This document shows positions 528 to 20,602 of a stretch of DNA of 64,000 bases, piece after piece (position 1 is the first letter of the stretch; every line of letters starts with the position of its first letter). The notes under the pieces are model-generated. The model was not told the origin of the DNA. It made no database searches and saw only the letters and a list, made by a program, of their open reading frames with translations. This DNA is from Candidatus Melainabacteria bacterium. Its GTDB lineage: Bacteria; Cyanobacteriota; Vampirovibrionia; 2-02-FULL-35-15. Location of the stretch: NCBI GenBank assembly GCA_016193285.1, contig JACPSL010000018.1, positions 91,535 to 155,534 on the forward strand, given 5' to 3'. The translations under genes were made by a program, and so were the position numbers.

Positions 528-2828
528 CTAAATACTAGCACAATTATTTACAAATGCAAATGCCCAAATTGATCCTGGCCTCTGATAAAGAGATGCTCTA
601 AAGTTCCCATTTATATCCCACGCTTCAGGAGTTCTAAACCAGTATCCTTTTTCATTGTAGACAACATTATAAATACCAAACGCAGTTTGAAGTGATTCTT
701 TTTTTAATCCCCTTAATTCCATATGTGATGCTAAAGCTAATGTAACTCCTGACCATATTTCATTTGATTGAGTGTTTAGTTTCCAGATTTTACTTTCTGG
801 AAGTAAAGTGCCATCTGGATTTATACCATTTATTGCACCAATATTTCCATTACCTATTTTTTTTACATTGAACTCAAAGATTTTTCTTAAAACCTTTTCA
901 ACTCTGTCTTTTTGAAAAATATCTCCAAGCCCTAAAAGATCTGCATACCACTGACCACAAAGCTGGTCTGCCATTATGTTCTCTTTATGTGAGCTTTTTG
1001 TATCGTATAAGTAATATTCACCATTCCAAAGTTTTGACTCAAGATTTATTCTTCCAATTTCAAACCAACTTTTAAAAAGCTCGTGATCTTTATTTAATAA
1101 TTTTGCGATTTCAACTACTGCTAATAAAGATGCTAGCCAAAGGCCATTACAATAAGTGCTAGCTCCATGCATTGTCCAATTATCATATGTTTGATCAGGA
1201 ATATTATCATTTTCAATTAAGCAATCATTGTCTCTGTCAAATTGTTTTAAATATTTAATTGCTTCAATTATGGGAAGCCATGCTGATTTTAAAAACTCAA
1301 TATCTTTTTTACCTGTAAAATAAAAATCACGATAAATTAAAAGTATAAATTTTGAATTTAAATCTTTCCATAGATTTACGTTTATATGCGAGTAAGCATT
1401 AATTTTTAAAAAAGGATCCTCATAAGGTGCTCCTAAATCGTGTGGTGCTGCTCCTTTTACTTTTCTTTCAGCCTTTGTTCTGTCAAGTGGATGGTCAAAA
1501 AACTTTTGCTCTTTAATTTCAAAATCAATTGTTTTTAAGTAGTCTTTCATTATTAATATCTCAAGCTCAGGCCATAGTTTTAAAAGAGGAAACGAGCCGT
1601 AAAACCTTACATCGAGTGTTTCATAAAATGGATAGTCAAAACATTCAAGAGAGCCAAAATGTTCTTCTTGCCTAAAAAACAAGTTGCTCTCTCTTTGTTC
1701 TGATTTCGCCGATACGCCGATACGCCGATACGTTGATGCTTGTTCTCTCCCTGCTGTCCAGATTGTTCCTCCAGCTGCTAGAAAATATAGTTCATTAATC
1801 AAAAGTATCTTAAACCAGTCAGGTTTATCAGTTCGTAAAAATTCTTCCTGCCAATTTTTTATTTCACTTATCCATTTTTCATGATTATTAAATGCTTTGC
1901 GTGCAATTTTTACTACGTTCTTCCCATCTCTGCCAAAAAACTTTGTATAGTGCTTGTACCACTTAGTACCACAACCAGATTCCAATATTGGGAAATCCCA
2001 AGCAAGTACAAAAACAATTGTCTTTCTTTCATAAGGTTTTAGCTTTACTTTTGCACAGATTGCACCAGGAGAATCTTTTAAATTTGATGAAGAGCTAAGA
2101 GCTCCCACTTTTGAAAATGTTTTCCAAATCTCAGAGCCATCTCCATGCTCAGAGAAAGCATTTGCATAACTTACTTCTACATCTTCTCTTTGAACAAAAA
2201 TCCCCATTTGTCCATATTTGTAGTCTTTTTTCTGGCTTAAGTTATCAAAAATTAATCCATAAAAATTGTTTTCTTGATAAAAGAAATTTTCCTTGCTTCC
2301 AAATATACTTTGCCAGCTCCAAAGTAATGAAATCTCTCTTTCACTCTTAGTAGGATTTGAAATATGCCATCTAAAAATTGCAAGAGGATAACTAGTATCC
2401 TGATAATTGTGTGGAATGATTGGAGAAAATTGTTCTTGAATTAAATTTAATCCTTCATATTCAAAATAAGCTCTTGGATATAATGCATGATAAGTGCCAT
2501 TTTGTTTTTTCCAAACCCAAGAAGACAGAGAGTTATCATTTGGTTTATAATCATTTAGAATAAAAGCTGTTCCATTCTCATAGAAACCAAACTGACAGGG
2601 AAAAATTGTTTTATAAATATGCTTCCCAACTTCTAGATGCCATCTTGAAAAATCTCCTCTAAATGATTGAGAAAAAGTCCCTGCTCCAAAGCCACCTAAT
2701 GGGATGCCTTGAAAATATCCATCATCAAAATTAGGCAGTCCTCCTTCAGGACCAATTACTTTTACTACTCCAGGTGACTCATGTGGTTCACCAATTTTTC
2801 TTTTCCAGCTTATTTCTGGGATTATCAT
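528..2828 (-). CDS. GH116-family (GBA2-type) beta-glucosidase/glucosylceramidase-like glycoside hydrolase.
   Basis: 766 aa, the usual size and two-domain organisation of bacterial GH116 enzymes. The family assignment is from memory of conserved blocks, not a search. Confidence 0.55.
1707..1738. repeat. Tandem octamer repeat, CGCCGATA x3 plus one degenerate unit, inside the GH116 coding region.
   Basis: Direct reading of cgccgatacgccgatacgccgatacgttgatg. The 24 perfect bases encode YRRIGVSA on the minus strand. Confidence 0.8.
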
Positions 2829-3213: not shown

Positions 3214-3348
3214 TTAAATACCTTGACTGTCCTATTATAAGACACGCTAGATTAAATAAATTTTATCTACTTAGCTATTGACTATAAGAACAAAATGAAA
3301 TAGATTATTTAAATATTATTATTTAAGCATCTTTTAAAAGGAGGAAAT

Positions 3349-3525
3349 ATGACATCTATAAAGATAGGACCTTTAGCTCTCTATAGCAAAATTAGACGAC
3401 CTCAAAAGAGTTTTTCTTCACGGGATAGAGAAGCAATATCTCGCTCTCAAGCTAGTACTCTTCCACCTGAGCATCAATCTAATTTCAGAAGACATATGAA
3501 ACGCCCTAATTTACACTTTGTTTAA
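3349..3525 (+). CDS. Small, highly basic hypothetical protein (58 aa, MTSIKIGPLALYSKIRRPQKSFSSRDREAISRSQ...).
   Basis: A strong Shine-Dalgarno (AAAGGAGGAAAT) sits 6 nt upstream of the ATG. The ORF is just below the track cutoff and is R/K-rich. Confidence 0.35.
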   Translation: MTSIKIGPLALYSKIRRPQKSFSSRDREAISRSQASTLPPEHQSNFRRHMKRPNLHFV

Positions 3526-3569
3526 AAATTTGTTCGTGGAGGTATATCTCAACTCGGGAGAATATTGTC

Positions 3570-3911
3570 ATGAAACAAATATTATTTTTATTAATTAGTT
3601 TAATTTTAATCTCAAGCGATCTTGCATTTGCTACGTGTGGTTATAGAGCACCAGAAATACAAACTCGTCAAAGAAGCTCATTAGTAATTCCTGAATCAAC
3701 AAATAACATAAAAAAACTTGCAGCAATTTCAAAAAAAGATGCAAAGAAATTTGCTACATCTCAATATCACGGTAAAGTTAAAAAAGCAGAACTTATAACA
3801 GAAGACGGCACACTTGTTTGGAAACTTGAAGTTAAAGGTGAACAAGGACAAAAGGAATTATTTATTGATCCAGCAAATGGTACGTTTTTAGGATACGGGT
3901 TAACTAAATAA
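3570..3911 (+). CDS. Secreted PepSY-domain protein.
   Basis: Signal peptide, then a C-terminal block (YHGKVKKAELITEDGTLVWKLEVKG...LFIDPANGTFLGY) that matches the PepSY fold pattern. Confidence 0.5.
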   Translation: MKQILFLLISLILISSDLAFATCGYRAPEIQTRQRSSLVIPESTNNIKKLAAISKKDAKKFATSQYHGKVKKAELITEDGTLVWKLEVKGEQGQKELFIDPANGTFLGYGLTK

Positions 3912-3943
3912 AGAAGCAGGTATGTTATTTTATTTAGTTAACC

Positions 3944-5317
3944 GTGAGAGAAATTCTTGAAAAAACAAAACTAAAATACAAAAAAAATATTCTTGAAACA
4001 ATAGGTTACACTCCGTTAATTCAACTTACAAAGATAACAAAAGGTTTAAAGCCACTAATTCTTATCAAAGCAGAGTTTTTTAATCCTGGCGGATCTGTTA
4101 AAGATCGTCCTGCAATAAAAATGATTGAAGAAGCAGAAAAAAAAGGATTATTAAAACCAGGAGGAACAATAATTGAACCTACTAGTGGAAACACTGGCGT
4201 AGGACTTGCTCAAGTTGCAGCTGTAAAAGGATATCGGTGTGTACTAGTAATGCCAGATAAAATGAGTGAAGAAAAGTTTGCACTTCTTAAAGCATATGGT
4301 GCTGAAGTAGTAAAAGTGCCTACTACTGCTACTTCAAGTCCAGAGAGTTATAACAATGTAGCTCAAAGACTAGCTACAGAAATTCCCGGAGCATTTTTAC
4401 CAAATCAGTTTCAAAATCCTGATAATCCAAAAGCTCACTATGAAACAACTGGACCAGAAATTTGGGAAGATACACATGGAAAAGTTACACATCTTGTTGC
4501 AGGAGTTGGAACAGGTGGAACAATTTCTGGAATTGCTAAATTTTTAAAAGAAAAAAATCCAAAAATTAAAATAATTGGTGTAGATCCTGAAGGATCAATT
4601 TACTCAGGTGATTATAGTAAGTCATATAAGATTGAAGGAATTGGAGAAGACTTTTTACCTCGCAATGTAAATCTGTCGTTAATTGATCAATTTGAAAGAG
4701 TTAATGATAAAGATGCTTTTGAAACAGCTAGAAAGCTAGCAAAAGAAGAAGGGATTTTAGCTGGTGGATCTGCTGGAGCTGCAGTTTGTGGAGCTATAAG
4801 AATTGCTAAAAACTTAAAAGAGAATGACATAGTAGTAGTAATTCTTCCTGACACTGGAAGAGCTTATCTAAGTAAGATTTACTCAGACAAATGGATGAAA
4901 GAAATGGGATTTCTTGCAGGCAGCCCATACAGGATAACATTAAAAGAATTGTTAACAAAAAAAGAATTTTCAGATAAGCTAATCTCTATAAATTACAGAG
5001 CTACTGTCAAAGAAGCAATTGAAGTAATGAGAAAAGACAGCATTTCACAATTACCTGTTGTAAAAGGAAATGGTTATGTTGGGAGCTTAAGTGAAATTGC
5101 ATTAATGCAGGGGATTTTTGATAGAACAATTCAGACTAATGATCCTATTGAAAAAATAATGGGCAAGCCTTTCCCAGAGCTTGATGAAAATACTGAAGCA
5201 GAAGAAGCATTTAAAGAATTTGCTCTTGGCGGTTCAGCAATTATTGTAAAAAGAAGTGACAAGCCAGTTGGACTTTTAACAAAGATAGATTTGCTTGATC
5301 AGTTTTTAAGTAAATAG
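3944..5317 (+). CDS. Cystathionine beta-synthase: PLP-dependent CysK/CBS-type catalytic domain plus a tandem CBS pair.
   Basis: GGSVKDRPA PLP-lysine motif, TSGNTG, a GxGTGGT glycine loop, and a C-terminal approximately 120-aa Bateman (CBS) module. Confidence 0.8.
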   Translation: MREILEKTKLKYKKNILETIGYTPLIQLTKITKGLKPLILIKAEFFNPGGSVKDRPAIKMIEEAEKKGLLKPGGTIIEPTSGNTGVGLAQVAAVKGYRCVLVMPDKMSEEKFALLKAYGAEVVKVPTTATSSPESYNNVAQRLATEIPGAFLPNQFQNPDNPKAHYETTGPEIWEDTHGKVTHLVAGVGTGGTISGIAKFLKEKNPKIKIIGVDPEGSIYSGDYSKSYKIEGIGEDFLPRNVNLSLIDQFERVNDKDAFETARKLAKEEGILAGGSAGAAVCGAIRIAKNLKENDIVVVILPDTGRAYLSKIYSDKWMKEMGFLAGSPYRITLKELLTKKEFSDKLISINYRATVKEAIEVMRKDSISQLPVVKGNGYVGSLSEIALMQGIFDRTIQTNDPIEKIMGKPFPELDENTEAEEAFKEFALGGSAIIVKRSDKPVGLLTKIDLLDQFLSK

Positions 5318-5388
5318 CTTTATATCTTAGGTTTAATCAGGGATTTGTTTCTAAGATTTATTAAGTGGGTATAATATCCCTGTAAAAA

Positions 5389-8300
5389 ATGAAAAAATTA
5401 ATTTGTTTAATCTTCGTATTGTCTATTAATCTTCCAACCCTTGCAGCACTAGGCATTAACTATGGAAATCTTTTTACTATTCCTCTTTTAGAAAATCATA
5501 AAGATAAAAGTACTATACTTCTTGCTCAGTCACAAACAAGTTTTTCAGGATCTACTAGTGGTAACAATGAAACACCATTTTCTGACACAGTTAAGATGTA
5601 CCTGTCCTCTACCCCTTCAAACTTACTTGGAGCTTATGAACATTACAAACCTCAATCAGCTCATCTAAACTTAACTGGTACATCTCAAACTACTCCAGCA
5701 TTTACTATTACAGCAAATGCTACTTTTACAAATCAAGCTTGGTCAATCACTGATGTTCAATTAAGTGGCACAGTTCCTACCAGCTATACTGTTCCTGAAC
5801 TTATAATCGATGATATTGTTGCTCAAATTGGAGGTCCTCAGTGTACTGGAACTAAATTTATTGCTGTAAAAACAATGGGTGGTCAAGATTATCTCATTAC
5901 TTGGATGATTGACGGCACCTCAACCAATGAAACTCGTCCTGTTTTACTTCCTAGACTTCAATTAACTCCATGGATAGGTGATAAGAGAGGCTGGCTTATT
6001 AAAATAAGAAACACAAACCCAGAAGGCGGGTTTGATCCTTATGCAGTTCCTTATGGACAAGACAATGTAAACCTAAAAAATTTAATCGATCCAATCATAA
6101 ATGTAATAAACAGATTGTCTAATAATCAAGTCAGGATGTTTTATGAAATAAAAGAAGCTTATTATAATGGACCTACAAATATAAGTTGCCAACTAAATCA
6201 AAACCCAATTATAAGTAATGTTCTTACTAATCTAGGAATCAATGAAACAAACTGGCGAAGCAGCTTTGACTTTTCAGTATACACAATGTACAAAATATTG
6301 CTTGATGCCTTCAAGCAGTATGAGAATTGTTATATACCACAAGGTACTGCCGCTTTTTGTGCTGCTGGTGCATGGTATCCAGATATTATTACTTCCTCTT
6401 TCAACGAAAGAACTTTTCAACATGAATTTGGACACACTATAAAATTTCCTCATCCATATTTAAATATCAATTGTGAAGGTGGCAATCCTCAAAACGTAAT
6501 AGCAAACCAGGTATTTGACAGCTGCAATGATTCACCAAGAAGCCCAACTTCAAATATGGGCCCAAACAATGGATTTTGGTGGAGTCCTATGGAAAGAGCT
6601 ATTCTTGGCTGGTTAAAAGGAGCTCAAGTAAAATCAATATCAAAGACTGGAATATATGACTTATACAGTGATAACGACGATCTTACTTCTGATCCTAGTA
6701 AACCTCTTATCCTTCAAGTACCAGTTAAAGTTAATAACATAACTGATTTTATTTATTTAACGCTACCAAATATAAGTGATGTAACTTACTGTTATAGTAG
6801 GACTGGTGAAACAGAGTTCATAGATCATTACAGTATGGGAGTTGAACTTAGTGCAGCGCACAATTTAAATCTTGATTTTACTGCATCAAGATTTGGTAGA
6901 AGTCTTTATTCAGTTGGATTAAAAGTATATAGTTACAACAATCAACCGTACAATGATGGTGACTGGCAAGCAGAAAGAAATGCTACATTCAAAAATACTA
7001 TACAACCTGATCAAGAAGTTCATCTAAATTGGCAAGGTACAGATGTCGTAATAAGAAATTTAGAACGCAGCGGTAATCATGCAAGAATTAGTATTCAATA
7101 CAACGAAGACATAACTTTATCTTCCTCATCAAGCTCATCAAGTAGTTCAAGTTCATCTTCATCATCAAGTTCGTCAAGTTCCTCTTCTAGTTCATCTTCT
7201 TCTAGCTCAGGTGGTTCATCATCATCATCATCTTCTTCTTCTAGTTCATCTTCCTCAAGTTCATCTTCTTCTAGCTCAGGTGGTTCATCATCATCTTCTT
7301 CTTCTAGTTCATCTTCCTCAAGTTCATCTTCTTCTAGCTCATCAAGTAGTTCAAGTTCATCTTCATCATCAAGTAGTAGTTCTTCCTCAGGTGGTTCATC
7401 ATCATCTTCTTCTAGTAGTTCATCATCTTCTTCTTCAAGTAGCTCTTCAGGTGGAGTAGATGGTAGCTCATCATCAAGTAGTAGTTCTTCTTCAGGTGGT
7501 TTCTCTACTTCAACAACCTCAAGTACTTCTACAGGTGGTACTTCTACCTCAACAACTTCAAGCACTACTTCATCTACAACCTCAAGTACTACAACTGGTG
7601 GTGCTCCAAGTTTAGGTGGTGGTGGTCTGTTTTTACCTTTAGAACCTCCTCCACAAACACCAGTACCTATTACATCTCCAACACCAAGTCCACAAGTACC
7701 TGAAGAGCCAATAACATCTCCTCCTCCAATTGCTACGGATCAAGGAAATGAAACAAAAAGTAATGAGAAGGAAATTGAACTTATTTTATCCTCTCAATTA
7801 CCTAATACTGCTTGGCAATCGCTTACACCAGATGAGTTGTCTAGTAATGTTAGTCTTGCATATAGTGATTCAAGCCTAACATTTGAAATTAAGCTTGCAA
7901 ACGATATTTCTAGTTCAGATATAGTTGCTCTTGATCTGGTAGATAGTAAGGGTACTGAATTTAAAAATATTCCGTTTACATTAACTTCAACTTCAAAAAA
8001 TTTAAATAATTTTATTTTAAGTTTTCAAATGCCTAGTAATATTGCTAAGGGCAAAATGACATTTAAACTAACATCAAATAAGGATACTACCTTTATTGGA
8101 TCAGTTAGAATTGTTAATTCTTTAAACATTGTAGCCATTACTTCTGGAAAAGAAAAAATCATTTCAAAACCAGTTATTAATAAGATTCAAGTAAAAAAGA
8201 AAAATAACAATGTTATCTTAGGTTTATTAGGCAATGGCTTTATAGATAAAAAACCACTTTTTACTAAAGATGGTAAGAAAACAGTCTTAAGAAGTAATAA

Positions 8301-8502
8301 AGGTAGTGAAAACACTATAGTTACAGTATTCCCAAGCAATCTAAATATAAACCAAAAGATAACTTCTATTTCAAAAAATGGCAGGAGCCTTACGATAAAG
8401 TTAGTTTTAAATAAAGAAGATCTTAAAGAACAAGTTCAAGGTATTGTTACTGTTGCTACCCCAAGAGGAATTACATCCAAGCAATTTGTAATCGATAAAT
8501 AA
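5389..8502 (+). CDS. Large secreted, probably cell-surface, protein. It has an N-terminal metzincin-like zinc-protease region (HEFGHTIKFPH), a poly-Ser/Gly/Thr stalk, a Pro-rich linker and a C-terminal beta-rich domain.
   Basis: Signal peptide. The HExxHxxxxxH spacing matches metzincins with Gly replaced by Lys. Roughly 150 residues are almost pure Ser. PLEPPPQTPVPITSPTPSPQVPEEP linker. Confidence 0.6.
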   Translation: MKKLICLIFVLSINLPTLAALGINYGNLFTIPLLENHKDKSTILLAQSQTSFSGSTSGNNETPFSDTVKMYLSSTPSNLLGAYEHYKPQSAHLNLTGTSQTTPAFTITANATFTNQAWSITDVQLSGTVPTSYTVPELIIDDIVAQIGGPQCTGTKFIAVKTMGGQDYLITWMIDGTSTNETRPVLLPRLQLTPWIGDKRGWLIKIRNTNPEGGFDPYAVPYGQDNVNLKNLIDPIINVINRLSNNQVRMFYEIKEAYYNGPTNISCQLNQNPIISNVLTNLGINETNWRSSFDFSVYTMYKILLDAFKQYENCYIPQGTAAFCAAGAWYPDIITSSFNERTFQHEFGHTIKFPHPYLNINCEGGNPQNVIANQVFDSCNDSPRSPTSNMGPNNGFWWSPMERAILGWLKGAQVKSISKTGIYDLYSDNDDLTSDPSKPLILQVPVKVNNITDFIYLTLPNISDVTYCYSRTGETEFIDHYSMGVELSAAHNLNLDFTASRFGRSLYSVGLKVYSYNNQPYNDGDWQAERNATFKNTIQPDQEVHLNWQGTDVVIRNLERSGNHARISIQYNEDITLSSSSSSSSSSSSSSSSSSSSSSSSSSSSSSGGSSSSSSSSSSSSSSSSSSSSSGGSSSSSSSSSSSSSSSSSSSSSSSSSSSSSSSSSSSGGSSSSSSSSSSSSSSSSSSGGVDGSSSSSSSSSSGGFSTSTTSSTSTGGTSTSTTSSTTSSTTSSTTTGGAPSLGGGGLFLPLEPPPQTPVPITSPTPSPQVPEEPITSPPPIATDQGNETKSNEKEIELILSSQLPNTAWQSLTPDELSSNVSLAYSDSSLTFEIKLANDISSSDIVALDLVDSKGTEFKNIPFTLTSTSKNLNNFILSFQMPSNIAKGKMTFKLTSNKDTTFIGSVRIVNSLNIVAITSGKEKIISKPVINKIQVKKKNNNVILGLLGNGFIDKKPLFTKDGKKTVLRSNKGSENTIVTVFPSNLNINQKITSISKNGRSLTIKLVLNKEDLKEQVQGIVTVATPRGITSKQFVIDK
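7120..7560. repeat. Highly repetitive poly-Ser-coding tract (TCA/TCT/AGT/AGC microsatellite-like) within the 1037-aa protein.
   Basis: Direct reading. The antisense ORFs 7095..7565 and 7211..7459 are artefacts of this low-complexity tract. Confidence 0.85.
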
Positions 8503-8531
8503 AACTCTACCACAAGTGATAAAATAAAAAT

Positions 8532-9680
8532 ATGCAATTTGAAACAAAAGCAATTCACATTGGTCAAGAACCAGATCCAACTACTGGTGCAACTATTACA
8601 CCTATTTATCAGACATCTACCTTTACACAAGATGCTCTAGGAAAACACAAAGGCTATGAATATTCAAGAACTGGAAACCCTACACGAGCAGCACTTGAAA
8701 CTGTTTTAGCTTCACTTGAAAATGGAAAATATGGGCTTTGTTTTGCTTCTGGATTAGCAGCTACAGTAAATGTTTTATGCTTGTTACAAGCTGGTGATGA
8801 GATTTTAGCTTGTGATGATCTTTATGGCGGTACAATTAGACTCTTTAACAGAGTATTTCCTAACTTCAATATTAAAACTACTTATGTAGATGGTACAAAT
8901 CAAAAAAACTTTGAAGATGGAATTACATCAAAAACTAAATTAATCTGGATTGAAACACCAACTAACCCTATGCTAAGACTTTGTGATATAAGTGCTATTA
9001 GTAAAGTCGCAAGACAAAGGGCGGATGGCCATCTGCCCCTACTGGCTGTTGATAATACATTTGCAAGCCCATTTTTTCAAAAGCCTCTTGATCTTGGTGC
9101 AGACATTGTAATCCATAGCACAACTAAATACTTAGGTGGGCACAGTGATGTAGTTGGTGGCACAGTAATTGTAAGTGATAAAAATATTTATGAAAAAATA
9201 AAGTTTTATCAAAATGCTCTTGGTGCAACACCAGGACCACTTGATTCATGGCTCATACTAAGAGGGGTTAAAACCTTGGCACTTAGAATGAAAAAACATG
9301 AAGAAAATGCAATCAAGGTAGCAGAGTTTCTAGAAAAACATCCAATAGTAAAAAAAGTAAATTACCCAGGCTTAAAATCTCACCCTCAGTATGAACTTGC
9401 AAAAAAACAAATGACTGGGTTTGGTGGAATGATATCTTTTGAAGTAAAAGGTGGAAGAGACATTGTTAAAAAAATAGTTGAATCAACTAAGCTCTTTGCA
9501 CTTGCTGAAAGTCTTGGGGGAGTTGAATCGCTGATTAATTTCCCGTTTACAATGACTCATGCAGGAGTTCCTGATAATCATAAAGCAAGGCTTGGTATTA
9601 CAGAAAGTTTAATTAGACTTTCAGTAGGAATTGAAAATACAAATGATTTAATAGATGATTTAAGACAAGCACTAAGTTGA
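8532..9680 (+). CDS. Cystathionine gamma-lyase / gamma-synthase family PLP enzyme (MetB/MetC/MccB type).
   Basis: 382 aa. It has the Cys/Met-metabolism PLP-enzyme blocks YSRTGNPT and TKYLGGHSDVVGG, where the lysine binds PLP. Confidence 0.8.
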   Translation: MQFETKAIHIGQEPDPTTGATITPIYQTSTFTQDALGKHKGYEYSRTGNPTRAALETVLASLENGKYGLCFASGLAATVNVLCLLQAGDEILACDDLYGGTIRLFNRVFPNFNIKTTYVDGTNQKNFEDGITSKTKLIWIETPTNPMLRLCDISAISKVARQRADGHLPLLAVDNTFASPFFQKPLDLGADIVIHSTTKYLGGHSDVVGGTVIVSDKNIYEKIKFYQNALGATPGPLDSWLILRGVKTLALRMKKHEENAIKVAEFLEKHPIVKKVNYPGLKSHPQYELAKKQMTGFGGMISFEVKGGRDIVKKIVESTKLFALAESLGGVESLINFPFTMTHAGVPDNHKARLGITESLIRLSVGIENTNDLIDDLRQALS

Positions 9681-9768
9681 AAACAAAGACATACAAATTT
9701 CATTCCTTGGCAATCTATGTTAAAAATAAAAGAAGTTATTCTTAGGATCCAAGAAAGGAAAAAGAAAG

Positions 9769-10476
9769 ATGAAAAGTACAAACTCTAGAAAGAATTTTCT
9801 TTATGCTATTTTATTTTTAGTTGCTATATTCTTTAATAGTCTTCCTCTTTATGCACAAACACTACAAGTACAAGCTTCCTTATATAACAGGCTTGGAGGA
9901 GTATTTGTGATTAGCGCTGTTGTAGATGATTTTACTGAAAGGTTAGTTTCTGATCCTATTATTACTGCAAATCCAAACATTGTAGCTGCAATCTCTGAAA
10001 TTAATAAGCCAGGACTAAAGTTCCTTATAACTGAGTTCCTTTGTGATAGAAGTGGTGGACCACAAAAATATACAGGGAAAAATATGAAAGAAGCTCACCA
10101 AAATTTAAAAATTACAGAAATTGAGTGGGGTACATCAGTAAAAATATTACTTGATGCTCTTGCAAAACAAAATGTCCCAGAAAAAGAAAAAAATGAACTA
10201 GTTGCACTTATATCAAGCATAAAGGGAGATATTGTTTCAGCTGAAATAAAAGTTCCTACACCACAAGTTCCTCCATTACAAGTCCCTGCTCCACTAGGAC
10301 AAGCTCCTTTTCCACAAGTTGCTCCTCTCCCACAAGCTGCTCCTGAAGTGCAAGTTGTGCCACCTCCTTTACAAGCTCCACAACCTGTAATCCCACCAGT
10401 ACAAGCTGCACCTGTAATAGAAGCAGTACCTCCTGATATCGAAAATATACTTCCTGATCTAGCACCACCTGAGTAG
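9769..10476 (+). CDS. Group-1 truncated hemoglobin (2/2 Hb) with an N-terminal signal peptide and a C-terminal Pro/Gln/Val-rich repeat tail.
   Basis: LYNRLGG...FTERLVSDP...FLITEFLCDRSGGPQKYTGKNMKEAHQNLKITEIEW matches trHbN conserved blocks. The signal-peptide-like N-terminus ends LYA-QT. The tail is about 70 residues of PxQ/VPP repeats. Confidence 0.6.
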   Translation: MKSTNSRKNFLYAILFLVAIFFNSLPLYAQTLQVQASLYNRLGGVFVISAVVDDFTERLVSDPIITANPNIVAAISEINKPGLKFLITEFLCDRSGGPQKYTGKNMKEAHQNLKITEIEWGTSVKILLDALAKQNVPEKEKNELVALISSIKGDIVSAEIKVPTPQVPPLQVPAPLGQAPFPQVAPLPQAAPEVQVVPPPLQAPQPVIPPVQAAPVIEAVPPDIENILPDLAPPE

Positions 10477-10659
10477 CTATTTAATACATAGCATTAAATC
10501 CATCAAGCATTTTTAAAAACCTTGGAGATTCTGCTTGCTTTAAGATTTCAAGAAGCATTCTTACATGATCTATTGCTGCTTAGTTGCTTTCACAAATGTC
10601 AATAATTTATCATTAGAAGACTTGATTGTATAGCACTACAATATAGCCATGTCTATTTT

Positions 10660-11889
10660 GTGGTATACTGCAAAGTAGCCATGATAGAAAGAGAGCTATA
10701 TAGTTTAATAGAAAAAGATAGCAATCTAAGACAAATGTCTTTTGTTGCAGGGCCAAGACAAATAGGGAAAACAACTCTTGCTAAAGAATTATTGCATAAG
10801 CATAATTGCTCAGAGTTTTATTTTAATTGGGATTTAGCTTCTACAAGATCAAATTATAGAGAAAATTCAAATTTTTATTCTAACAACATAGGGAACAGGA
10901 AGAAGGTCTGGATTTGTTTTGATGAAATCCACAAACTAAGAAAATGGAAAAATATATTAAAAGAGCATTTTGACAAAAATGAAGGCAGAATGAAAACAAT
11001 AATTACTGGAAGTGCAAGGTTAGATCTGTTTAGAAAATCTGGAGATAGTCTTGCAGGAAGATATTTTTTATATCATTTGTTACCTTTAACGCTAAGTGAA
11101 ATTTCAGCAAGGGGAAAAAATGTTGAAGAGAAGCTAGCATCAGCAATAGACTTTATTGAATTAAGAATAAGTAGGAAAGTTAAATCTAAAAACTCAATTG
11201 ATCAGCTACTAAGATTCAGTGGTTTTCCAGAGCCCTTTAAAATAGCTTCTGAAGATTTCCATACAAAGTGGAAAAAGTCTTATGTTGACAGGCTAATCTA
11301 TGAAGATTTGAGAGAGATATCACAGATTCAAGACCTGGAAAAAACTGCACTATTAATTGATTTACTGCCAGAAAGAATAGGAGCACTTTTATCAATTAAT
11401 TCACTAAGTGAAGATTTAGAAGTAAATTTCAGAACAGCTAAAAATTATCTTAAAGCATTAGAATTAACTTACATATTGTTTTTTATTAAACCCTATACAA
11501 AAAATATTTCAAGATCGGTAAGAAAAGAACAAAAAGTCTATTTCTATGACTGGACAAGAATTAACAATGAATCAAATAGATTTGAAAATTATGTTGCATG
11601 TGAACTTTTTATACTAGTTTCCTTCTGGAATGATTCTGGATATGGATATTATGACTTGAATTTTATTAGAACAAAAGATGGAAAAGAAACAGACTTTCTA
11701 ATTATAAAAGATAAGAAACCCTGGTTACTTATAGAGGTAAAGCTTGCGTCAAAGGAAATAAAGTCGCATCATATTACACAAGCAAAATACTTAGGTAATA
11801 TTCCGGTTATTCAGATAGTTTATGAAGGAAGTGTAATAAAAAGATTAGATAAGAATTTGTTTATAATTTCTGCTGAAAAGTTTTTTTAA
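10660..11889 (+). CDS. AAA-family ATPase with a DUF4143-type C-terminus.
   Basis: Walker A GPRQIGKTT, Walker B-like WICFDEIH, and the architecture typical of the ATPase-DUF4143 family. The true start may be the ATG at 10681. Confidence 0.55.
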   Translation: MVYCKVAMIERELYSLIEKDSNLRQMSFVAGPRQIGKTTLAKELLHKHNCSEFYFNWDLASTRSNYRENSNFYSNNIGNRKKVWICFDEIHKLRKWKNILKEHFDKNEGRMKTIITGSARLDLFRKSGDSLAGRYFLYHLLPLTLSEISARGKNVEEKLASAIDFIELRISRKVKSKNSIDQLLRFSGFPEPFKIASEDFHTKWKKSYVDRLIYEDLREISQIQDLEKTALLIDLLPERIGALLSINSLSEDLEVNFRTAKNYLKALELTYILFFIKPYTKNISRSVRKEQKVYFYDWTRINNESNRFENYVACELFILVSFWNDSGYGYYDLNFIRTKDGKETDFLIIKDKKPWLLIEVKLASKEIKSHHITQAKYLGNIPVIQIVYEGSVIKRLDKNLFIISAEKFF

Positions 11890-12400: not shown

Positions 12401-12928
12401 ATGTTTAATTTTAGATCAGATAAGGGGAATGTGCTTCTTGAACTAGCTTTAGTTACTCCACTTTTAATAATGTTTATTGGAGTAATTTTTGAAGCTTCAC
12501 GAATGTATTATATCCAAAGTGCTTTAGAGTATGGAGCTAAAGAAGCTGCACGAATTGGTTCATCAGTTAAAGAAAGTGTTGATGCTAACTACATGAGTAA
12601 GAGTACTATTTCACGTTATGAAATTGAAAACTTAATAAAAAATAGTGTGAGAGTAATGGGTGTAATTGAAGAAGGAGCACAATTTATGATTAGATACTTA
12701 AATCCAGCTGGTAATGAAATTAGTGGTGTTCAGGATAATTTGCCATTTGACAGAAAAAATGATCCCGGTGCAATTGATTTTGTAGAAGTAGAAATTACAT
12801 ATCCTGGAAGTGGACCTGGAGTAAACAGTCCAATTCCTGTAGTAATAAATCCAGGAAATATTTTTAAAGACAGTATAACTTTAAGTTCAAAAGCAATATT
12901 TAAAATTGAAGGAAGGTTTGAAAGATGA
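12401..12928 (+). CDS. tadE: TadE-like pseudopilin.
   Basis: N-terminal LLELALVTPLLIMFIGVIFEASRMYY, the TadE/TadF signature TM segment. 175 aa. Confidence 0.7.
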   Translation: MFNFRSDKGNVLLELALVTPLLIMFIGVIFEASRMYYIQSALEYGAKEAARIGSSVKESVDANYMSKSTISRYEIENLIKNSVRVMGVIEEGAQFMIRYLNPAGNEISGVQDNLPFDRKNDPGAIDFVEVEITYPGSGPGVNSPIPVVINPGNIFKDSITLSSKAIFKIEGRFER

Positions 12929-13428
12929 AAAATATTTTAAGAAGAGATTTAGGAGCAATAATGGTAGAAGCTGCATTTGCAATACCAGTGTTTTTATTTT
13001 TAATTTTTGGTTTACTTGAACTTTCAAGAATAATGTACATTAAAAATGCATTAAATATCGCAGCTCAACAAGTAGCAAGTTCAATTTCAATACATGCAAA
13101 AAGGACAGCAACCTATGATGTTGCTTCTTTTTCAACTTATGCAGCCAGCATTCATTATCCAGGTGCTGTGTTTAGCTCAAGTCAGTTTTCTTTTAATGTT
13201 ACAAATGCTTCAAACAGTTCTACAGTTACAAATGGACAAGCTGATGGAATAGCAAGCACAAAAGTTGTAGTGAATGCTATTTTTCCACCACCAAATAGTG
13301 GTGTTAAAGTTCCAACTTTTGATCCAGGTAGATTATTTGGTGCACCAATTTTTGGGCGAAATGGTATACAGCTTTCAGCACAAGCAATTTGTTTTCTTGA
13401 ACGCTCAAGGAGACCTGTATTAAATTAG
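12925..13428 (+). CDS. Second TadE/TadF-like pseudopilin.
   Basis: AIMVEAAFAIPVFLFLIFGLLELSRIMYIKNAL. Its start overlaps the previous gene's stop by 4 bp. Confidence 0.7.
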   Translation: MKNILRRDLGAIMVEAAFAIPVFLFLIFGLLELSRIMYIKNALNIAAQQVASSISIHAKRTATYDVASFSTYAASIHYPGAVFSSSQFSFNVTNASNSSTVTNGQADGIASTKVVVNAIFPPPNSGVKVPTFDPGRLFGAPIFGRNGIQLSAQAICFLERSRRPVLN

Positions 13429-13439
13429 GAGAAGTAAAA

Positions 13440-15083
13440 GTGAGACATAAAGTAAGAAATAATCCTGGATCAATTATACCCATGGCAGCTCTTTTAATGA
13501 GCGTGATTATTTCTTTTTCAGCACTTGCAATAGATATGAGTTATAACGGTATTGTAAGAAGTTCACTTGAAAAAGCAACTGAGTCTGCAGCTGTAGCTGG
13601 AGCACAAGAATATTTTAGAAATGGTGCTGATGCAGGAAAAGCAGTAAATGAAACTATTCGGATCTTTAAAATGAATGTTTCTAATGACACAATGATTGGT
13701 AACTATTACTCTGCTACTGGTATGGGTAGTCCAACAACATTAACTTATTCAAAAACATTTACATCAGGTGATAACTTAAGAGCTTTATTTAAACAACAAC
13801 CAATTACTTTAACCATCATGACTGACTTAAATCGCGGTAAAGTAACAGTAACTTCAGCACATACTACAAAATCATACTTTGCAAAACTGTTTACAAGTAA
13901 TTCAATGATCTCAATAACAAGAGAAGCAGAATTACCACCATATGATGTTGTATTTGTAGTTGACTTATCGGGCTCAATGAGATTTGCTACAGTAAGTACT
14001 TATATTGGAACTGCATATGTACAAACACAAGGAATGTCAGGTTTAGGACCACTGACTACAGATGTGATTATTACTCAGTCCCAGTATCAGCCAGGCATAG
14101 GCACAATGATTACAGCAAACGGCCTTGTGACAACTCTTTCTAATATCACTGATGTAGTAATTAACACACCAGGAACTGATATTCCTGCAACTGCAACCTA
14201 TAGTAGTGGCAAAAGTATTTATATCAATGATCCTGACAGAGGATTTATAGTAAATCACGATATGGCTAGTGGGCTTAGAAGAATAGCTTTAACTGGTTAC
14301 AGAATTAATCAATTAGCAGCATTAAATGTATCTGGTGAAGATAAACAACTTGCACAAACTTTTAATGACAATAAAAGTACAAATCAAGCAGTTGTAGACA
14401 ATTATTTTACTAGAGCAGCTTCTTATATAGAACCAGTTGCAAGTGCAATAGATGGTGTTAGTGCTTTTATTGATACTGTAAAAATATATGGTTCAGCTGC
14501 TTTAAAGTTAGGTTTAGTAACTTTTGAAAGTAGTTCTTATACTGCTGATATGACATCTAACTGGTATTGTAGTGAACTAGAAGGAGGAAATGTTTCTAAA
14601 TATATGAAAAGAACATTACCTTACTTAAGCCTTGTAAATCCTGTTAACTTTGATACTGTTACTAATAAACTATCCATCATGGCAACAAGTGGTACTGGCT
14701 CCTTTACAAATCCAATTGTTACTTATAGTTATCCTAATGGTGGTACAAATATAAATGCTGGACTTACTAATGCAAAGTATGTATTTGACAAAAGCGACAG
14801 ACCAAATTCTGAAAAAGTAATTATTCTTTTTACTGATGGTGAACCAACAGCACATACTTTTAGTGCACTTGGGCAAAAAGTTAAATCACTAACTGATGCA
14901 AAAATTAAAATTTATTCAATAGTACTTACTTTAGCTATATCACAAACTACTATTAATAATTTTAAATATCAAGTTGAAACTATTGGAAAAGCAGAGCCTG
15001 TAATATTTATAAATGATCCTGCAAAACTAAAAAATGCATTTCTTCAAATTGCTGATGATTTGGGATTAAAGTTGGTTAATTAA
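13440..15083 (+). CDS. tadG: TadG-like pilus-assembly protein with a von Willebrand factor A domain.
   Basis: TadG N-terminal region (MAALLMSVIISFSALAIDMSYNGIVRSSLEKATESAAVAGA). vWA MIDAS motif DVVFVVDLSGSM, and later ILFTDGEPT. Confidence 0.7.
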   Translation: MRHKVRNNPGSIIPMAALLMSVIISFSALAIDMSYNGIVRSSLEKATESAAVAGAQEYFRNGADAGKAVNETIRIFKMNVSNDTMIGNYYSATGMGSPTTLTYSKTFTSGDNLRALFKQQPITLTIMTDLNRGKVTVTSAHTTKSYFAKLFTSNSMISITREAELPPYDVVFVVDLSGSMRFATVSTYIGTAYVQTQGMSGLGPLTTDVIITQSQYQPGIGTMITANGLVTTLSNITDVVINTPGTDIPATATYSSGKSIYINDPDRGFIVNHDMASGLRRIALTGYRINQLAALNVSGEDKQLAQTFNDNKSTNQAVVDNYFTRAASYIEPVASAIDGVSAFIDTVKIYGSAALKLGLVTFESSSYTADMTSNWYCSELEGGNVSKYMKRTLPYLSLVNPVNFDTVTNKLSIMATSGTGSFTNPIVTYSYPNGGTNINAGLTNAKYVFDKSDRPNSEKVIILFTDGEPTAHTFSALGQKVKSLTDAKIKIYSIVLTLAISQTTINNFKYQVETIGKAEPVIFINDPAKLKNAFLQIADDLGLKLVN

Positions 15084-17149
15084 TACGAGGAAATCTTATT
15101 TTCTCTTGCAAGTCTCATAGCTTCCTGAGCTTGTGCATAACGTGCAGTTTCAATTCTCCATGCTGCATTTAGTAATTGTTGTTGTCTTTTAAGTTTATCC
15201 TCATTTTTTTTAAAATTATTTAGTTTTCTAAGTTCACTATATTCATTGTTTAAAGAAATGTTGTTATCTACTTTCTTATTTGTAGACTCATTATATTTCC
15301 CTGCATCTAAAGGCTCTTTCATATCAGGACCTTTTTCATCATCTTTCTTTATGTAAGGTTTAAATGGTGCTAGCTCATCAAAATCATGATATGGAATTTC
15401 TGGTTTAGCAAGCTTGGATATTTTAGCCACCGAAGTTGGTCTTACAATTTGTGGTGAAACAACAACAAGTAATTCTGTTTCACCTTGTCTAAATGACTTG
15501 CTTCTAAATAAAGTCCCTAAGATTGGGATGTCACCAATGCCTGGTACTTTACGGAGGTTTCTTGTATTGTCTTCTCTTAAAAGTCCACTTATAGCAAATG
15601 CTTGTCCTGTTTCAAGTTCAACCTGTGTTTGTGTTCTTCTTGTCCTAAATGCAGGTGGTCTTACTGATGTTGAACCTACTGGTACAACAAGGTTTGAAAG
15701 ATTAGTATCAATATCTCTTATTTCAGGACTAAGTTGTAAATAAATTTTATTTTCACCAGTTACTGTTGGTAGTATTACAAACCTTATTCCAAAAGGTTCA
15801 TAAGTAATATCTTGGCTTGCACCACCAGCTGTAAAAACTGATCTTACAATTGGTACTTCTCCACCAGCTAAAAATGAAGCTGGCTCTCCGTTTGCAACTA
15901 CAAGATTCGGTTCAGCAAGTGTTTTAATTTCTCCTCTTTCTTGAAGAGCCTGAAGAACAACTCCAATACCATTATCTGGATTAAAGATTGCTCCAGTTAC
16001 ACCATCTCCAATTGTTTGTGCAACAACTGATCCACCTGCAACTGAACCATGACCAAAACCAAATTCAGGAGCTGAACCTCCACTTGCAGCTTTAAATTCA
16101 GTTAAATTTGCTATTGAACCAATTTGTCCTAAAAGCTGCCCGATTCCACTCCCACCAATAAATGTTCCACCTTGAATTGTGCTGCCGCCAAACGTTGTAT
16201 TAAAACCTAAATTTCTTGCAACACTTCTTGAGACTTCAAAAAACCTTATAGCAACTGATACTTGTGGAGGATCTTTTACTGTTAAAAAACTAATTACTGA
16301 TCCATTTTGTGTAGTTGCAATTACACCACGACTAAGATTTGCATATCTATTTGAGGTAAATTTTATTGGGTCACGTGCACCAAAAGATACAGCTGAACCT
16401 TGGGTTTGAGTTTGCCCTTGAGAATCTGAATTTGCAGATATGTCATATCTTCCTGCCAACCCATCAACAATTTGTCCACCAGGTTGACTTATAATTTTTA
16501 TTCCTTGATCCCCTACATACACACCTGCAATTTGAAGAGCTCTGGCAATTATCTCTGCATTTGAAACTTCTCCTTTTAAAATTATTTTTCCACTAGTTGC
16601 TGCTGTAGATGATGACGTAGTAGAGCTGGAACTACCTGCAGTTGGAGAAGGAGTAGAAGAAGATGCTGCTGCTTGTGATAATGAACTAGTAGCAACTGAT
16701 GTTTGTTCGCTTGAAGTTTTTGATGTAGAACTTATATTAGAACTTGGTGGAATGTATTCTACTGTAATATTTTTATCTAGGTCTTGTAGTTGCTTAGTTA
16801 AATAATCAATATCAGGCCAAACTGAGATATCAAATCTTGCTGGATGTGAAGTTTCTTTTTCCCACATAATTATTGTACTTATACCTAATTTTTTAGCTCT
16901 AACAAAAACCTCTTTTTCATTTAGCACCTGAAGATCTACAATTGCTGGATCACTTACTGCAACTCTTAAAATTGTTTTATCACTTGATATGATTTCACCT
17001 TTTCCAAGGTTTAATTTTTTTATTTGAGTTTTATCTTGATAGTAATCTGCTTCAAGAAAGAAAACTTTTGAACTTACAGGGATTATTGTTTGAATACAAA
17101 AAGCACTAATTAAAGTTAATAAAAATAAAGTCTTAATGAATGGCTTCAC
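15080..17149 (-). CDS. cpaC: Tad secretin CpaC/RcpA. It carries a Ser/Thr-rich linker and an unusual Lys/Gln-rich coiled-coil C-terminal extension.
   Basis: Secretin C-domain blocks GGEVPIV...LAEPNLVVANGEPASFLAGGEVP...IPILGTLFRS...ELLVVVSPQIV. Its 3' end overlaps the tadG 3' end (convergent TTAATTAA). Confidence 0.8.
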   Translation of the reverse strand: MKPFIKTLFLLTLISAFCIQTIIPVSSKVFFLEADYYQDKTQIKKLNLGKGEIISSDKTILRVAVSDPAIVDLQVLNEKEVFVRAKKLGISTIIMWEKETSHPARFDISVWPDIDYLTKQLQDLDKNITVEYIPPSSNISSTSKTSSEQTSVATSSLSQAAASSSTPSPTAGSSSSTTSSSTAATSGKIILKGEVSNAEIIARALQIAGVYVGDQGIKIISQPGGQIVDGLAGRYDISANSDSQGQTQTQGSAVSFGARDPIKFTSNRYANLSRGVIATTQNGSVISFLTVKDPPQVSVAIRFFEVSRSVARNLGFNTTFGGSTIQGGTFIGGSGIGQLLGQIGSIANLTEFKAASGGSAPEFGFGHGSVAGGSVVAQTIGDGVTGAIFNPDNGIGVVLQALQERGEIKTLAEPNLVVANGEPASFLAGGEVPIVRSVFTAGGASQDITYEPFGIRFVILPTVTGENKIYLQLSPEIRDIDTNLSNLVVPVGSTSVRPPAFRTRRTQTQVELETGQAFAISGLLREDNTRNLRKVPGIGDIPILGTLFRSKSFRQGETELLVVVSPQIVRPTSVAKISKLAKPEIPYHDFDELAPFKPYIKKDDEKGPDMKEPLDAGKYNESTNKKVDNNISLNNEYSELRKLNNFKKNEDKLKRQQQLLNAAWRIETARYAQAQEAMRLARENKISSY

Positions 17150-17221
17150 AGTACTCTTATCAGAACAATAAGCAATAGTAAATGTTCCTTTTTTAGGAAT
17201 TTTTTATCTTGCTCAAGATAA

Positions 17222-18202
17222 TTATTGTGGCAGACCACTCCCAAGTGTTGAAATTAATTGAAGTACAGGAGGTCCTACACTTACTGCTAAAACACATGGA
17301 AAAATAAACAGTGCCATTGGAAGCATCATTTTAATTGTCATTTGTGCTGCTGTTTCTTCTGCTTTTTGTCTTCGTCTAACCCTTAAAAAATTTGCCTGGC
17401 TTCTAAGCACACCTCCAATACTAGAACCAACTTTTTCTGACTGAATTATAATCCTTGCAAGACTTTTTAATTCTTCTGAACTTGTTCTTGTTCCTAAGTT
17501 TAACCAACAAGTAGTCCTGTCTTGTCCTAAATTCATTTCTCTGTTTGTAAGAATAATTTCTTCAGCTAGATCTTTTCCTTTATTCCCAATATTTGAAGCA
17601 ACTCTTAGTAATGACTGATCAATTCCCATACCAGCCTCAGTACATATGACTAAAAGATCTAAGGCATCTGGCAAGATGCGATCAATGCTTTGTTGTCTTT
17701 TTGCTACTAGTTTATCTAAAAAAATATTTGGAAATATAAATCCAACAGCACCTACAATAAAAGCAAGAAACATTCCAGTTTGTAAATTTTTTCCTATTAC
17801 TGAAAGAATAAAAAATGGAATTACTGCAAGTACAATAGCTAAGGTTATTTTAATTGTATATAAAAACTGAAGTGCTTTTTTATCCCTGAAGCCAGCTTTA
17901 ATTAAAAGCTTTCTTGCAGCTGACTGTTTACTGTAAGGCACCTTCTCGCTAAACCAGCTCCCTACTTGTTCTCCAAGAGGAATTAAAACTCTTTTTGCAA
18001 AACTTTCATCTTTATCTTCTTTATCTTGAGTGTCGGGGGTGTACTTTGCAGATTCGCTTTTTTCAGATAACCAAAATTGTAATCTTTTACTTATTTCACT
18101 TGATTCAGCAGATATTGCTCTTGTCCTGTAGATTACTATGCAAATTAAAAATATTGCACCAAATGCACATACACTACTTAGAATAATCATTAGGTTTGTC
18201 AT
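17222..18202 (-). CDS. tadC: TadC (GspF-like inner-membrane platform protein).
   Basis: T2SS-F domain pattern, 326 aa with three TM regions. It sits in a tadB-tadC pair downstream of cpaF. Confidence 0.7.
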   Translation of the reverse strand: MTNLMIILSSVCAFGAIFLICIVIYRTRAISAESSEISKRLQFWLSEKSESAKYTPDTQDKEDKDESFAKRVLIPLGEQVGSWFSEKVPYSKQSAARKLLIKAGFRDKKALQFLYTIKITLAIVLAVIPFFILSVIGKNLQTGMFLAFIVGAVGFIFPNIFLDKLVAKRQQSIDRILPDALDLLVICTEAGMGIDQSLLRVASNIGNKGKDLAEEIILTNREMNLGQDRTTCWLNLGTRTSSEELKSLARIIIQSEKVGSSIGGVLRSQANFLRVRRRQKAEETAAQMTIKMMLPMALFIFPCVLAVSVGPPVLQLISTLGSGLPQ

Positions 18203-18212
18203 TTGTCTTTTC

Positions 18213-20599: not shown

Positions 20600-20602
20600 T
20601 TT

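Follow-up and report, generated by a model that had tools for sequence, protein, structure and literature searches.

A 64,000-nucleotide stretch of a Candidatus Melainabacteria genome, referred to here as the window, contains on its + strand an open reading frame (ORF) at positions 5389-8502 that encodes a protein of 1037 amino acids (aa). The ORF, which agrees in position and length with an earlier note on this DNA, is a genuine gene. It lies between the gene for cystathionine beta-synthase (CBS) and a gene for a pyridoxal phosphate (PLP) enzyme of Cys/Met metabolism, which we call the partner gene. We consider it moderately probable that the product is a Sec-exported modular zinc metalloendopeptidase with a metzincin head, a long spacer and a C-terminal binding or docking module, whose gene was inserted between CBS and its partner. 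The following features were recognized within the ORF, all on the + strand apart from the last, which lies opposite.

5389-5448, + strand: Sec-type signal peptide (aa 1-20; MKK followed by LICLIFVLSINLPTLAA), read from the sequence and modelled as a helix at residues 2-20
5560-5943, + strand: N-terminal beta-sandwich of the head (aa 58-185), eight strands, predicted local distance difference test score (pLDDT) ~95, conserved across the family
5956-6618, + strand: metzincin-type catalytic domain (about aa 190-410, ~220 aa), assigned from the structural model, Foldseek, a PDB profile search and hhalign
6421-6453, + strand: zinc-binding motif HEFGHTIKFPH (aa 345-355), with H345, E346, H349, K352 at the usual Gly site and H355
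6556-6558, + strand: M390, candidate Met-turn methionine, Met in ~19 of 25 family members
6619-7113, + strand: C-terminal beta-rich domain of the head (aa 411-575), pLDDT >90, kept in every full-length family member
7120-7494, + strand: polyserine tract (aa 578-702), defined by composition, codon usage and internal repeats
Within the polyserine tract: exact in-frame direct repeat of 57 nt, spacing 63 nt
Within the polyserine tract: exact in-frame direct repeat of 39 nt, spacing 204 nt
Within the polyserine tract: exact in-frame direct repeat of 38 nt, spacing 69 nt
7495-7599, + strand: Ser/Thr-rich segment (aa 703-737) with a 39-nt period
7600-7728, + strand: Gly/Pro-rich linker (aa 738-780), 15 Pro in 43 aa
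7729-8499, + strand: C-terminal module (C-module; aa 781-1037, 257 aa), free of Cys and ending in TPRGI
7095-7565, - strand: antisense ORF of 156 aa, rich in Glu, Leu and Asp, the mirror of the polyserine tract

The head (aa 58-575) had no direct match in Pfam, NCBIfam or the sequences of the Protein Data Bank (PDB), and the full-length protein likewise matched no family in Pfam or NCBIfam. A word-indexed search of 5.8 billion proteins returned only two homologs, P0001 (40% identical to the head, with the canonical motif HEFGHTIGLSH) and P0002 (29% identical, with HELGHAIGQRE), and another word-indexed homolog search returned just six family members. When 1.84 billion cluster representatives were searched exhaustively with HMMER, 24 full-length relatives emerged (E 1e-50 to 1e-268), which align over the whole ~525-aa unit, plus fragments. 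The same search gave nine weak matches limited to the active-site region, several of which bear Pfam gametolysin M11, Reprolysin_3/4/5 or matrixin M10 domains. The head family is sparse and patchy in its distribution. Its members also carry Big_9, fn3, PKD, CARDB, cadherin-like, He_PIG and dockerin domains, as is typical for proteins that are secreted or exposed at the surface. One member with a faint dockerin match, P0009 (L091:6001-8580 / L092:3322-5901), lies on a groundwater-metagenome contig amid archaeal genes, its neighbours encoding ribosomal protein L21e, the RNA polymerase subunit Rpb4 and TrmB; this context suggests that the protease family has moved between domains of life. Another member, P0053, lies on a bacterial contig beside a trypsin-like protease.

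Residue conservation was counted over 25 family members. The first His of the motif (H345) is kept in all 25, E346 and H349 are each kept in 23, and the third His, six residues past the second as is characteristic of metzincins, is present in about 20. The other hallmark of the clan, a Met-turn methionine, is provided by the M390 column, which the PDB profile search aligns with the Met of astacin SIMHY and hhalign with that of P0031, an M11-like protein. The earlier note had pointed out that HEFGHTIKFPH keeps the metzincin His spacing with Lys in place of Gly. The spacing is as described, but the weight given to the substitution proved misplaced, as only ~14 of the 25 members have Gly in this column and others have Thr, Gln, Asn, Tyr, Ser or further residues. 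Judged from this alignment, Lys at the Gly site is within the normal variation of the family. In most members a Pro follows the third His; Pro at this position is the family-specific residue of serralysin-type enzymes, whereas adamalysins have Asp there. The target head contains seven Cys residues, among which C362 is nearly invariant across the family.

The Lys could also be taken as a sign that replacement of the turn-forming Gly abolished activity, leaving an inactive adhesin or pseudo-protease whose head would be a binding surface borne on a stalk. The degenerate HExxH of two family members, P0017 and P0020, indicates that the family tolerates loss of the active site, and no activity is known for any member. 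However, the target keeps H345, E346, H349, H355 and M390, the motif region (aa 341-360) was modelled confidently, with a pLDDT of about 91-92, and the Gly site varies in ~11 of the 25 members that are otherwise intact, indicating that Gly is dispensable in this family. We therefore consider loss of activity distinctly unlikely, and an adhesin is a less likely alternative than a protease because all of the catalytic residues are intact.

Profile searches placed the catalytic region of the head among the metzincins. When the family profile was compared with PDB sequences, nearly all of the 42 matches at E <= 10 were metzincins, including trimerelysin II (E = 0.0027), astacin (0.0045), other snake-venom metalloproteinases, ADAMTS-5, matrix metalloproteinases (MMPs) and BMP1, and the astacin alignment extended from the zinc motif to the SIMHY Met-turn. 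Comparison of the trimmed family alignment with P0031, which is annotated with M11 and Reprolysin_5, gave an hhalign probability of 97.4% (E = 1.5e-11, 203 columns), with an alignment that spans the HExxH helix, the Met, the RA.LGWL helix and the following beta domain. In a permissive Pfam scan of the catalytic segment of four members, the matches were mostly to metzincin models (M43, M10, reprolysin-like and the DUF4953 'Met-zincin'), with only two weak non-metzincin matches. All were below threshold, the best scores being 14.5-17 bits for M43 (cutoff 23), 17.7 for Reprolysin_5 (cutoff 27) and 14.1 for M10 (cutoff 24). No peptidase model covered the catalytic domain at E <= 0.01 in any of the 25 members; the one peptidase match at this level was to Peptidase_C25, in a single member.

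An AlphaFold (AF2) model of the head built on the 25-sequence alignment reached a pLDDT of 86.5 and a predicted template modelling score (pTM) of 0.86; an alignment of three sequences gave a pLDDT of only 35. The N-terminal sandwich was modelled with eight strands between residues 62 and 184. It is followed by the catalytic core, which consists of strand 197-207, helix 224-243, strands 248-258 and 295-300, a short strand at 318-319, strand 326-329, helix 340-350, which bears H345, E346 and H349, and helix 400-405. A C-terminal beta-rich domain (aa 414-575) completes the head; the P0031 sequence that follows the catalytic domain aligns to it. The metzincin fold comprises a five-stranded sheet, a backing helix, an active-site helix, a Met-turn and a C-terminal helix (PMC9848320), and the order of secondary-structure elements in our model agrees with it. 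Foldseek matched the head to snake-venom metalloproteinases, adamalysin II, acutolysin-C, ADAMTS-4/5 and profragilysin, with probabilities of up to 1.0 (0.96-1.0 for the adamalysin, snake-venom metalloproteinase and ADAMTS catalytic domains) and a template modelling (TM) score of up to 0.53 normalized to the target. The earlier note's metzincin-like head, which a lack of any protease fold in structure prediction would have spoken against, is instead supported by a predicted core that matches adamalysins, ADAMTS proteins and fragilysin and by profile searches that reach the metzincins. In our judgement the head is a member of the metzincin clan that falls outside all curated families.

The described enzymes to which the head can be compared are adamalysin/reprolysin (MEROPS M12B) and gametolysin (M11), with which it shares the HExxH helix, the third His six residues on, the downstream Met and the C-terminal helix. 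It differs from these enzymes in that its catalytic domain is flanked by a conserved beta-sandwich on the N-terminal side and a beta domain on the C-terminal side, that its family varies at the Gly of the extended motif, with Lys in the target itself, and that no family member reaches the Pfam threshold for a peptidase model over the catalytic domain.

The head is followed by a low-complexity spacer of ~200 residues (aa 578-780). Its first part is the polyserine tract, in which 114 of the 125 residues are Ser (91%), the others being nine Gly, one Val and one Asp. Six Ser codons are used (TCA 46, TCT 34, AGT 22, AGC 6, TCC 5 and TCG 1). From one codon to the next there is a change at 78 of 124 steps, and no pure trinucleotide run exceeds five units. 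The earlier note had described about 150 consecutive Ser residues encoded by a near-perfect TCx/AGy microsatellite ending at 7560. Our analysis did not bear this out: the run is shorter and interrupted, the tract ends at 7494, and 7560 falls within the Ser/Thr-rich segment. Because six codons are mixed and exact repeats of 57, 39 and 38 nt are present, the tract is minisatellite-like rather than a near-perfect microsatellite, and the array is better described as having arisen by recent segmental duplications. The Thr-rich and Pro-rich linkers leading to a C-terminal domain, also mentioned in the earlier note, correspond to aa 703-737, aa 738-780 and the 257-aa module. The antisense ORF at 7095-7565 was rejected as a gene, as it is the antisense shadow of the polyserine tract.

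The C-module probably consists of two beta domains. It is basic (pI 9.7), in contrast to the acidic head (pI 5.1), and its C-terminus, TPRGITSKQFVIDK, has neither an LPXTG motif nor a hydrophobic tail. The module had no match above threshold in Pfam or NCBIfam, including models for the type IX secretion system (T9SS) C-terminal domain (CTD), PEP-CTERM and other sorting or anchoring signals, and a profile of 14 members matched nothing in PDB sequences. A weak TIG match in the last ~100 aa (PF20144 TIG_SUH, E = 0.014, 16 bits versus a cutoff of 24) was seen in only one of the 14. Profile searching found 13 further homologs of the module, all ending in the invariant TPRGI. Some of these homologs stand behind Cys-rich heads, and others (P0046, P0050-P0052) consist only of a signal peptide, a short Ser/Gly linker and the module.

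The stalk and C-module are reused with a different metzincin head in a related groundwater genome, nzgw192 (L004). Here the gene at L004:15465-17879 encodes an 804-aa protein with the same layout as the target: a signal peptide, an M10-like head, a 115-aa Ser/Gly tract, a Pro-rich linker and a C-module ending in TPRGI. Its head has the canonical motif HEVGHAVGLDH, a Peptidase_M10 match of 24.4 bits (cutoff 24) and a CarboxypepD_reg-like domain, and is unrelated to the target head beyond ~33 columns around HExxH. The gene lies upstream of the OGG and globin genes, whereas the target gene lies between CBS and its partner. Orthologs with the same layout, including a polyserine stalk longer than 100 aa, occur in L083 (1-1338), L084 (1-1064), L086 (1-1894), L087 and L088, and the linker between head and C-module spans 213 aa in L004 as against 258 aa in L086. 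The C-modules of this group are 57-78% identical among themselves but only 35-38% identical to that of the target (31% in tblastn and ~35% over aligned columns for L004). By these identities the target C-module is a divergent paralog of the L004 type. The idea that the target stalk and C-module are a simple L004-type ortholog with a swapped head was rejected on the same grounds.

These stalked genes are poorly represented in public data. The orthologs in L083, L084 and L086-L088 end at the Ser tract through contig ends or antisense ORF calls, the latter lying 5′ of the C-module on the minus strand (e.g., L084:2-289 and L086:400-1176), and public gene calls shrink L004-type proteins to the C-module alone (P0040-P0043). 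Within ~30 nt of the start of the L083 contig, an in-frame stop (…NIVAK*ASSSS) occupies the exact position at which the L004 sequence is …NIIAKLASSSS; the L083 gene may be a pseudogene, or the beginning of its Ser tract may contain a sequencing error. The breakage of short-read assemblies and gene calls at polyserine tracts in relatives also raises the question of whether the target itself is an artefact of assembly or annotation, in which unrelated head and C-module genes were fused through a collapsed or chimeric low-complexity repeat. We consider this highly improbable, as the frame is open through 1037 codons over every junction, the order of metzincin head, polyserine tract, Pro linker and C-module was assembled independently in L004 and L086, and the flanks of the target meet CBS and the partner cleanly where relatives have only 9-32 nt.

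The repeats within the tract bear on whether it is a contingency locus, in which slipped-strand changes would vary the length or frame of the stalk within a population. The exact in-frame direct repeats would be suitable substrates, the 63- and 69-nt spacings indicate recent segmental duplications, and the linker of the paralogous M10-type gene differs in length between L004 and L086. However, these length differences lie between species-level genomes rather than inside one population, and mixed codons with pure runs of at most five units disfavour classical microsatellite slippage. Moreover, since all of the repeat spacings are multiples of three, the length of the stalk could change but on/off switching could not occur. 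Slippage through the 38-57-nt in-frame repeats is the only form that seems plausible from the sequence, and a contingency locus is on balance rather unlikely.

A near-pure Ser run between a catalytic domain and a C-terminal accessory or binding module has been described in the polyserine-linker (PSL) enzymes of Saccharophagus degradans, Teredinibacter turnerae and Cellvibrio japonicus (PMC2386152, PMC2699552). Like the target, with its signal-like N-terminus and its 114 Ser in 125 residues, the PSL enzymes are secreted, have Gram-negative hosts and contain a run of at least ~80% Ser between folded domains. Described PSLs average 39-44 residues and 80-83% Ser (PMC2699552); the target tract is about three times as long and is followed by further Ser/Thr and Pro linkers. 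The PSL enzymes are carbohydrate-active and carry a carbohydrate-binding module (CBM), whereas the target has a metalloprotease-like head and a C-module that matches no CBM, and their hosts are marine gammaproteobacteria, whereas the target belongs to Melainabacteria, another phylum. The PSL logic of catalytic domain, polyserine linker and binding module is the closest described parallel for the arrangement proposed for the target. The serine-rich repeat adhesins (SRRPs) of Gram-positive bacteria likewise use a long Ser-rich stalk, which in their case is O-glycosylated, to project a functional domain. Unlike the target, they have LPXTG and Ser-X dipeptide repeats; the target has no LPXTG, its tract is homopolymeric Ser, its head is N-terminal to the stalk, it ends in a folded module and its host is diderm.

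The N-terminus of the protein, MKK followed by a hydrophobic stretch, resembles a signal peptide and is consistent with the secretion proposed in the earlier note; the Sec pathway would be the predicted route of export. The seven Cys of the head and the accessory domains carried by other family members likewise favour a location outside the cytoplasm. Residues 22-57, which follow the signal-like helix, form a low-confidence segment in the model. A lipoprotein was rejected because there is no lipobox. The window also contains a complete Tad/Flp pilus cluster at 12401-21802, with two TadE-like proteins, a TadG-like VWA protein, a secretin, two T2SSF proteins (TadB/C-like), a T2SSE ATPase and a ParA/CpaE-like ATPase. 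The outer-membrane secretin is encoded at 15080-17149, and this secretin-bearing cluster shows that the organism is diderm and piliated.

An exported enzyme of this kind might be freely released, with a C-module that functions in, for example, secretion, folding or oligomerization rather than in targeting or anchoring, and with the Ser/Thr/Pro region as a protease-resistant spacer. The C-module has no known anchor (LPXTG, T9SS C-terminal domain, PEP-CTERM or lipobox), and the existence of proteins that consist of a signal peptide and C-module would suit this explanation. On the other hand, the module always forms the very C-terminal end, preceded by a long spacer and by heads that are unrelated, as is typical of binding and anchoring modules, it is strongly basic next to an acidic head, and a 200-aa spacer is hard to account for without a need for reach. 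A soluble enzyme thus seems unlikely, and we favour a C-module that binds or docks.

The organization of the region around the gene was compared with that of related genomes by mapping proteins of the window onto 80 loci. Three features frame the insertion.

3944-5317, + strand: CBS gene, the upstream flank, with a PALP domain and CBS domains
5318-5388, + strand: 71-nt intergenic region, the left border of the inserted segment, absent from the CBS-partner junctions of L003 and L005
8532-9680, + strand: partner gene, the downstream flank, encoding a Cys/Met-metabolism PLP enzyme of the cystathionine gamma-lyase or gamma-synthase family

When genomes were scanned with the CBS protein, the window fell within Candidatus Melainabacteria (Vampirovibrionia), and the nearest genomes were nzgw190 (L003), nzgw192 (L004) and RIFCSPHIGHO2_02_FULL_34_12 (L005), all groundwater metagenome-assembled genomes (MAGs), with CBS identities of 82-86%. 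CBS directly adjoins the partner gene in L003 (32 nt between) and L005 (9 nt between). The two genes are separated by 60-150 nt in ~20 other Melainabacteria/Obscuribacterales-type genomes, and several outgroup phyla likewise have them side by side. The contiguous arrangement is thus the ancestral state, and the 3.2 kb from 5318 to 8531 represent a derived insertion. This outcome upholds the suggestion in the earlier note that the gene was inserted later, since the pair is adjacent in two of the three nearest genomes and the third carries a different insert.

That insert, at L004:11996-12715, comprises a 98-aa ORF with a weak ribbon-helix-helix match followed by a 140-aa PIN-domain protein (PF01850, 2e-14), and is a VapBC-like toxin-antitoxin pair. 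Since the cargo differs from that of the window, the CBS-partner junction has been hit at least two times and looks like a recurrent insertion site in this clade. A search of the borders for the signature of a mobile element gave only chance-level short matches, with no target-site duplication and no terminal (inverted) repeats, and a recent foreign origin was rejected on base composition, as the GC content of the head (0.33-0.37) is in line with that of the flanks. In L005, the partner gene is directly followed by a 145-aa ORF (12638-13075) whose product combines a signal peptide with a Cys-rich segment and a tail rich in Pro and Ser. This product resembles the Cys-rich heads that precede the C-module in P0044, P0045 and P0047 and may be what is left of a stalked protein, or a fragment of one.

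The identity of the flanking enzymes was examined with curated models. The upstream gene is a CBS gene by its Pfam PALP match (5e-84), its CBS domains and NCBIfam TIGR01137 (540 bits versus a cutoff of 510). The downstream enzyme matches Pfam Cys_Met_Meta_PP (1e-157); the sole NCBIfam model above cutoff is that for cystathionine gamma-synthase, PRK07811 (530 versus 513), and the bifunctional lyase model is below cutoff (514 versus 594). The earlier note had the target splitting CBS and gamma-lyase genes. The position is right, but the name gamma-lyase is contextual, because only PRK07811 exceeds its cutoff. The partner gene begins 29 nt past the target stop codon, and no + strand terminator was predicted within 3300-10700. 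The lack of a predicted terminator between CBS and the partner makes co-transcription plausible, and the target is probably transcribed together with the pair or by read-through from it. A TATAAT hexamer can be read at 5370-5375, in the 71-nt gap 5′ of the target, although a promoter scan did not report it as a site.

Several neighbouring genes deserve mention. A small secreted PepSY-domain protein is encoded directly 5′ of CBS (3570-3911, + strand), an arrangement kept in L003-L005; a functional tie to the target was rejected, as the PepSY gene also adjoins CBS in relatives that do not have the target gene. Downstream, a truncated-haemoglobin (Bac_globin) protein is conserved across the clade (window 9769-10476, + strand; L004:18795-19784; L005:15503-16189). 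It has a signal-peptide-like N-terminus and a Pro/Gln/Ala-rich C-terminal tail of varying length; it is unusual for a globin to be exported, as this one appears to be. A GH116 beta-glucosidase-like protein (DUF608 and Glyco_hydr_116N) is encoded at 528-2828 (- strand) and has a 72%-identical homolog 5′ of CBS in L005. The 888-aa protein encoded at 31281-33947 (+ strand), with copper amine oxidase N-terminal-like and CarboxypepD_reg-like domains, is probably also a large secreted or surface protein.

Taken together, our model predicts that H345, H349 and H355 would be the zinc ligands, that E346 would act as general base and that M390 would form the Met-turn beneath the metal site. Residues 578-780 would serve as a long flexible linker that gives the protease reach, and the C-module would dock the enzyme on a surface, either the envelope of its own cell or a polymeric target. 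The gene entered the ancestral CBS-partner pair in one Melainabacteria lineage. Several observations weigh against this model. The head family has no characterized member and no curated peptidase model reaches threshold. As the query is made up of several domains, individual scores are marginal (best PDB sequence E = 0.003, best Foldseek E = 1.6e-3). Both a convergence of the three His on one metal and the geometry of the Met-turn are presumed. In metzincins, the Gly three residues past the second His permits a sharp turn into the C-terminal subdomain (PMC9848320), and in the target this canonical Gly of HExxHxxGxxH is Lys352. As Gly is relaxed across the family, this lowers strict membership by motif but does not contradict the fold assignment. 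The C-module matches no known binding or anchoring domain in Pfam, NCBIfam or PDB, and its proposed role is therefore drawn from architecture and charge alone. The host is diderm, yet no route across the outer membrane was identified for the target protein. Finally, a word-indexed protein search and metagenome scans with the head found no ortholog of the exact gene.

The novelty lies in how three elements are combined: an uncatalogued family in the metzincin clan, a polyserine linker of unusual length and a C-terminal module that is both undescribed and reusable. The family is rare and lies outside Pfam and NCBIfam, and a confident model with candidate catalytic residues makes it directly testable. 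Very long polyserine linkers, known mainly from carbohydrate-active enzymes of a few marine gammaproteobacteria, are now seen on proteases in Melainabacteria; our literature search found no report linking Melainabacteria with polyserine proteins. Because stalked genes are systematically broken by short-read assembly and antisense ORF calls, such surface or secreted proteins are under-represented in databases. The biological stakes are moderate, as function is inferred and current understanding is not overturned.

A broader reading, which we put forward tentatively and regard as doubtful, is that the head founds an undescribed ~520-aa three-domain metzincin family, patchily present in uncultured bacteria and at least one archaeal genome, and that groundwater Melainabacteria have their own display cassette. 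This cassette would consist of the very long polyserine stalk, the Pro linker and the basic C-module that ends in TPRGI, and shuffling would have placed unrelated heads, proteases as well as Cys-rich ones, in front of it. Should the cassette tether hydrolases to the surface of the cell itself, of prey or of a host, the non-photosynthetic sister lineage of the Cyanobacteria would possess a new system of surface display, possibly tied to an attached or predatory lifestyle.

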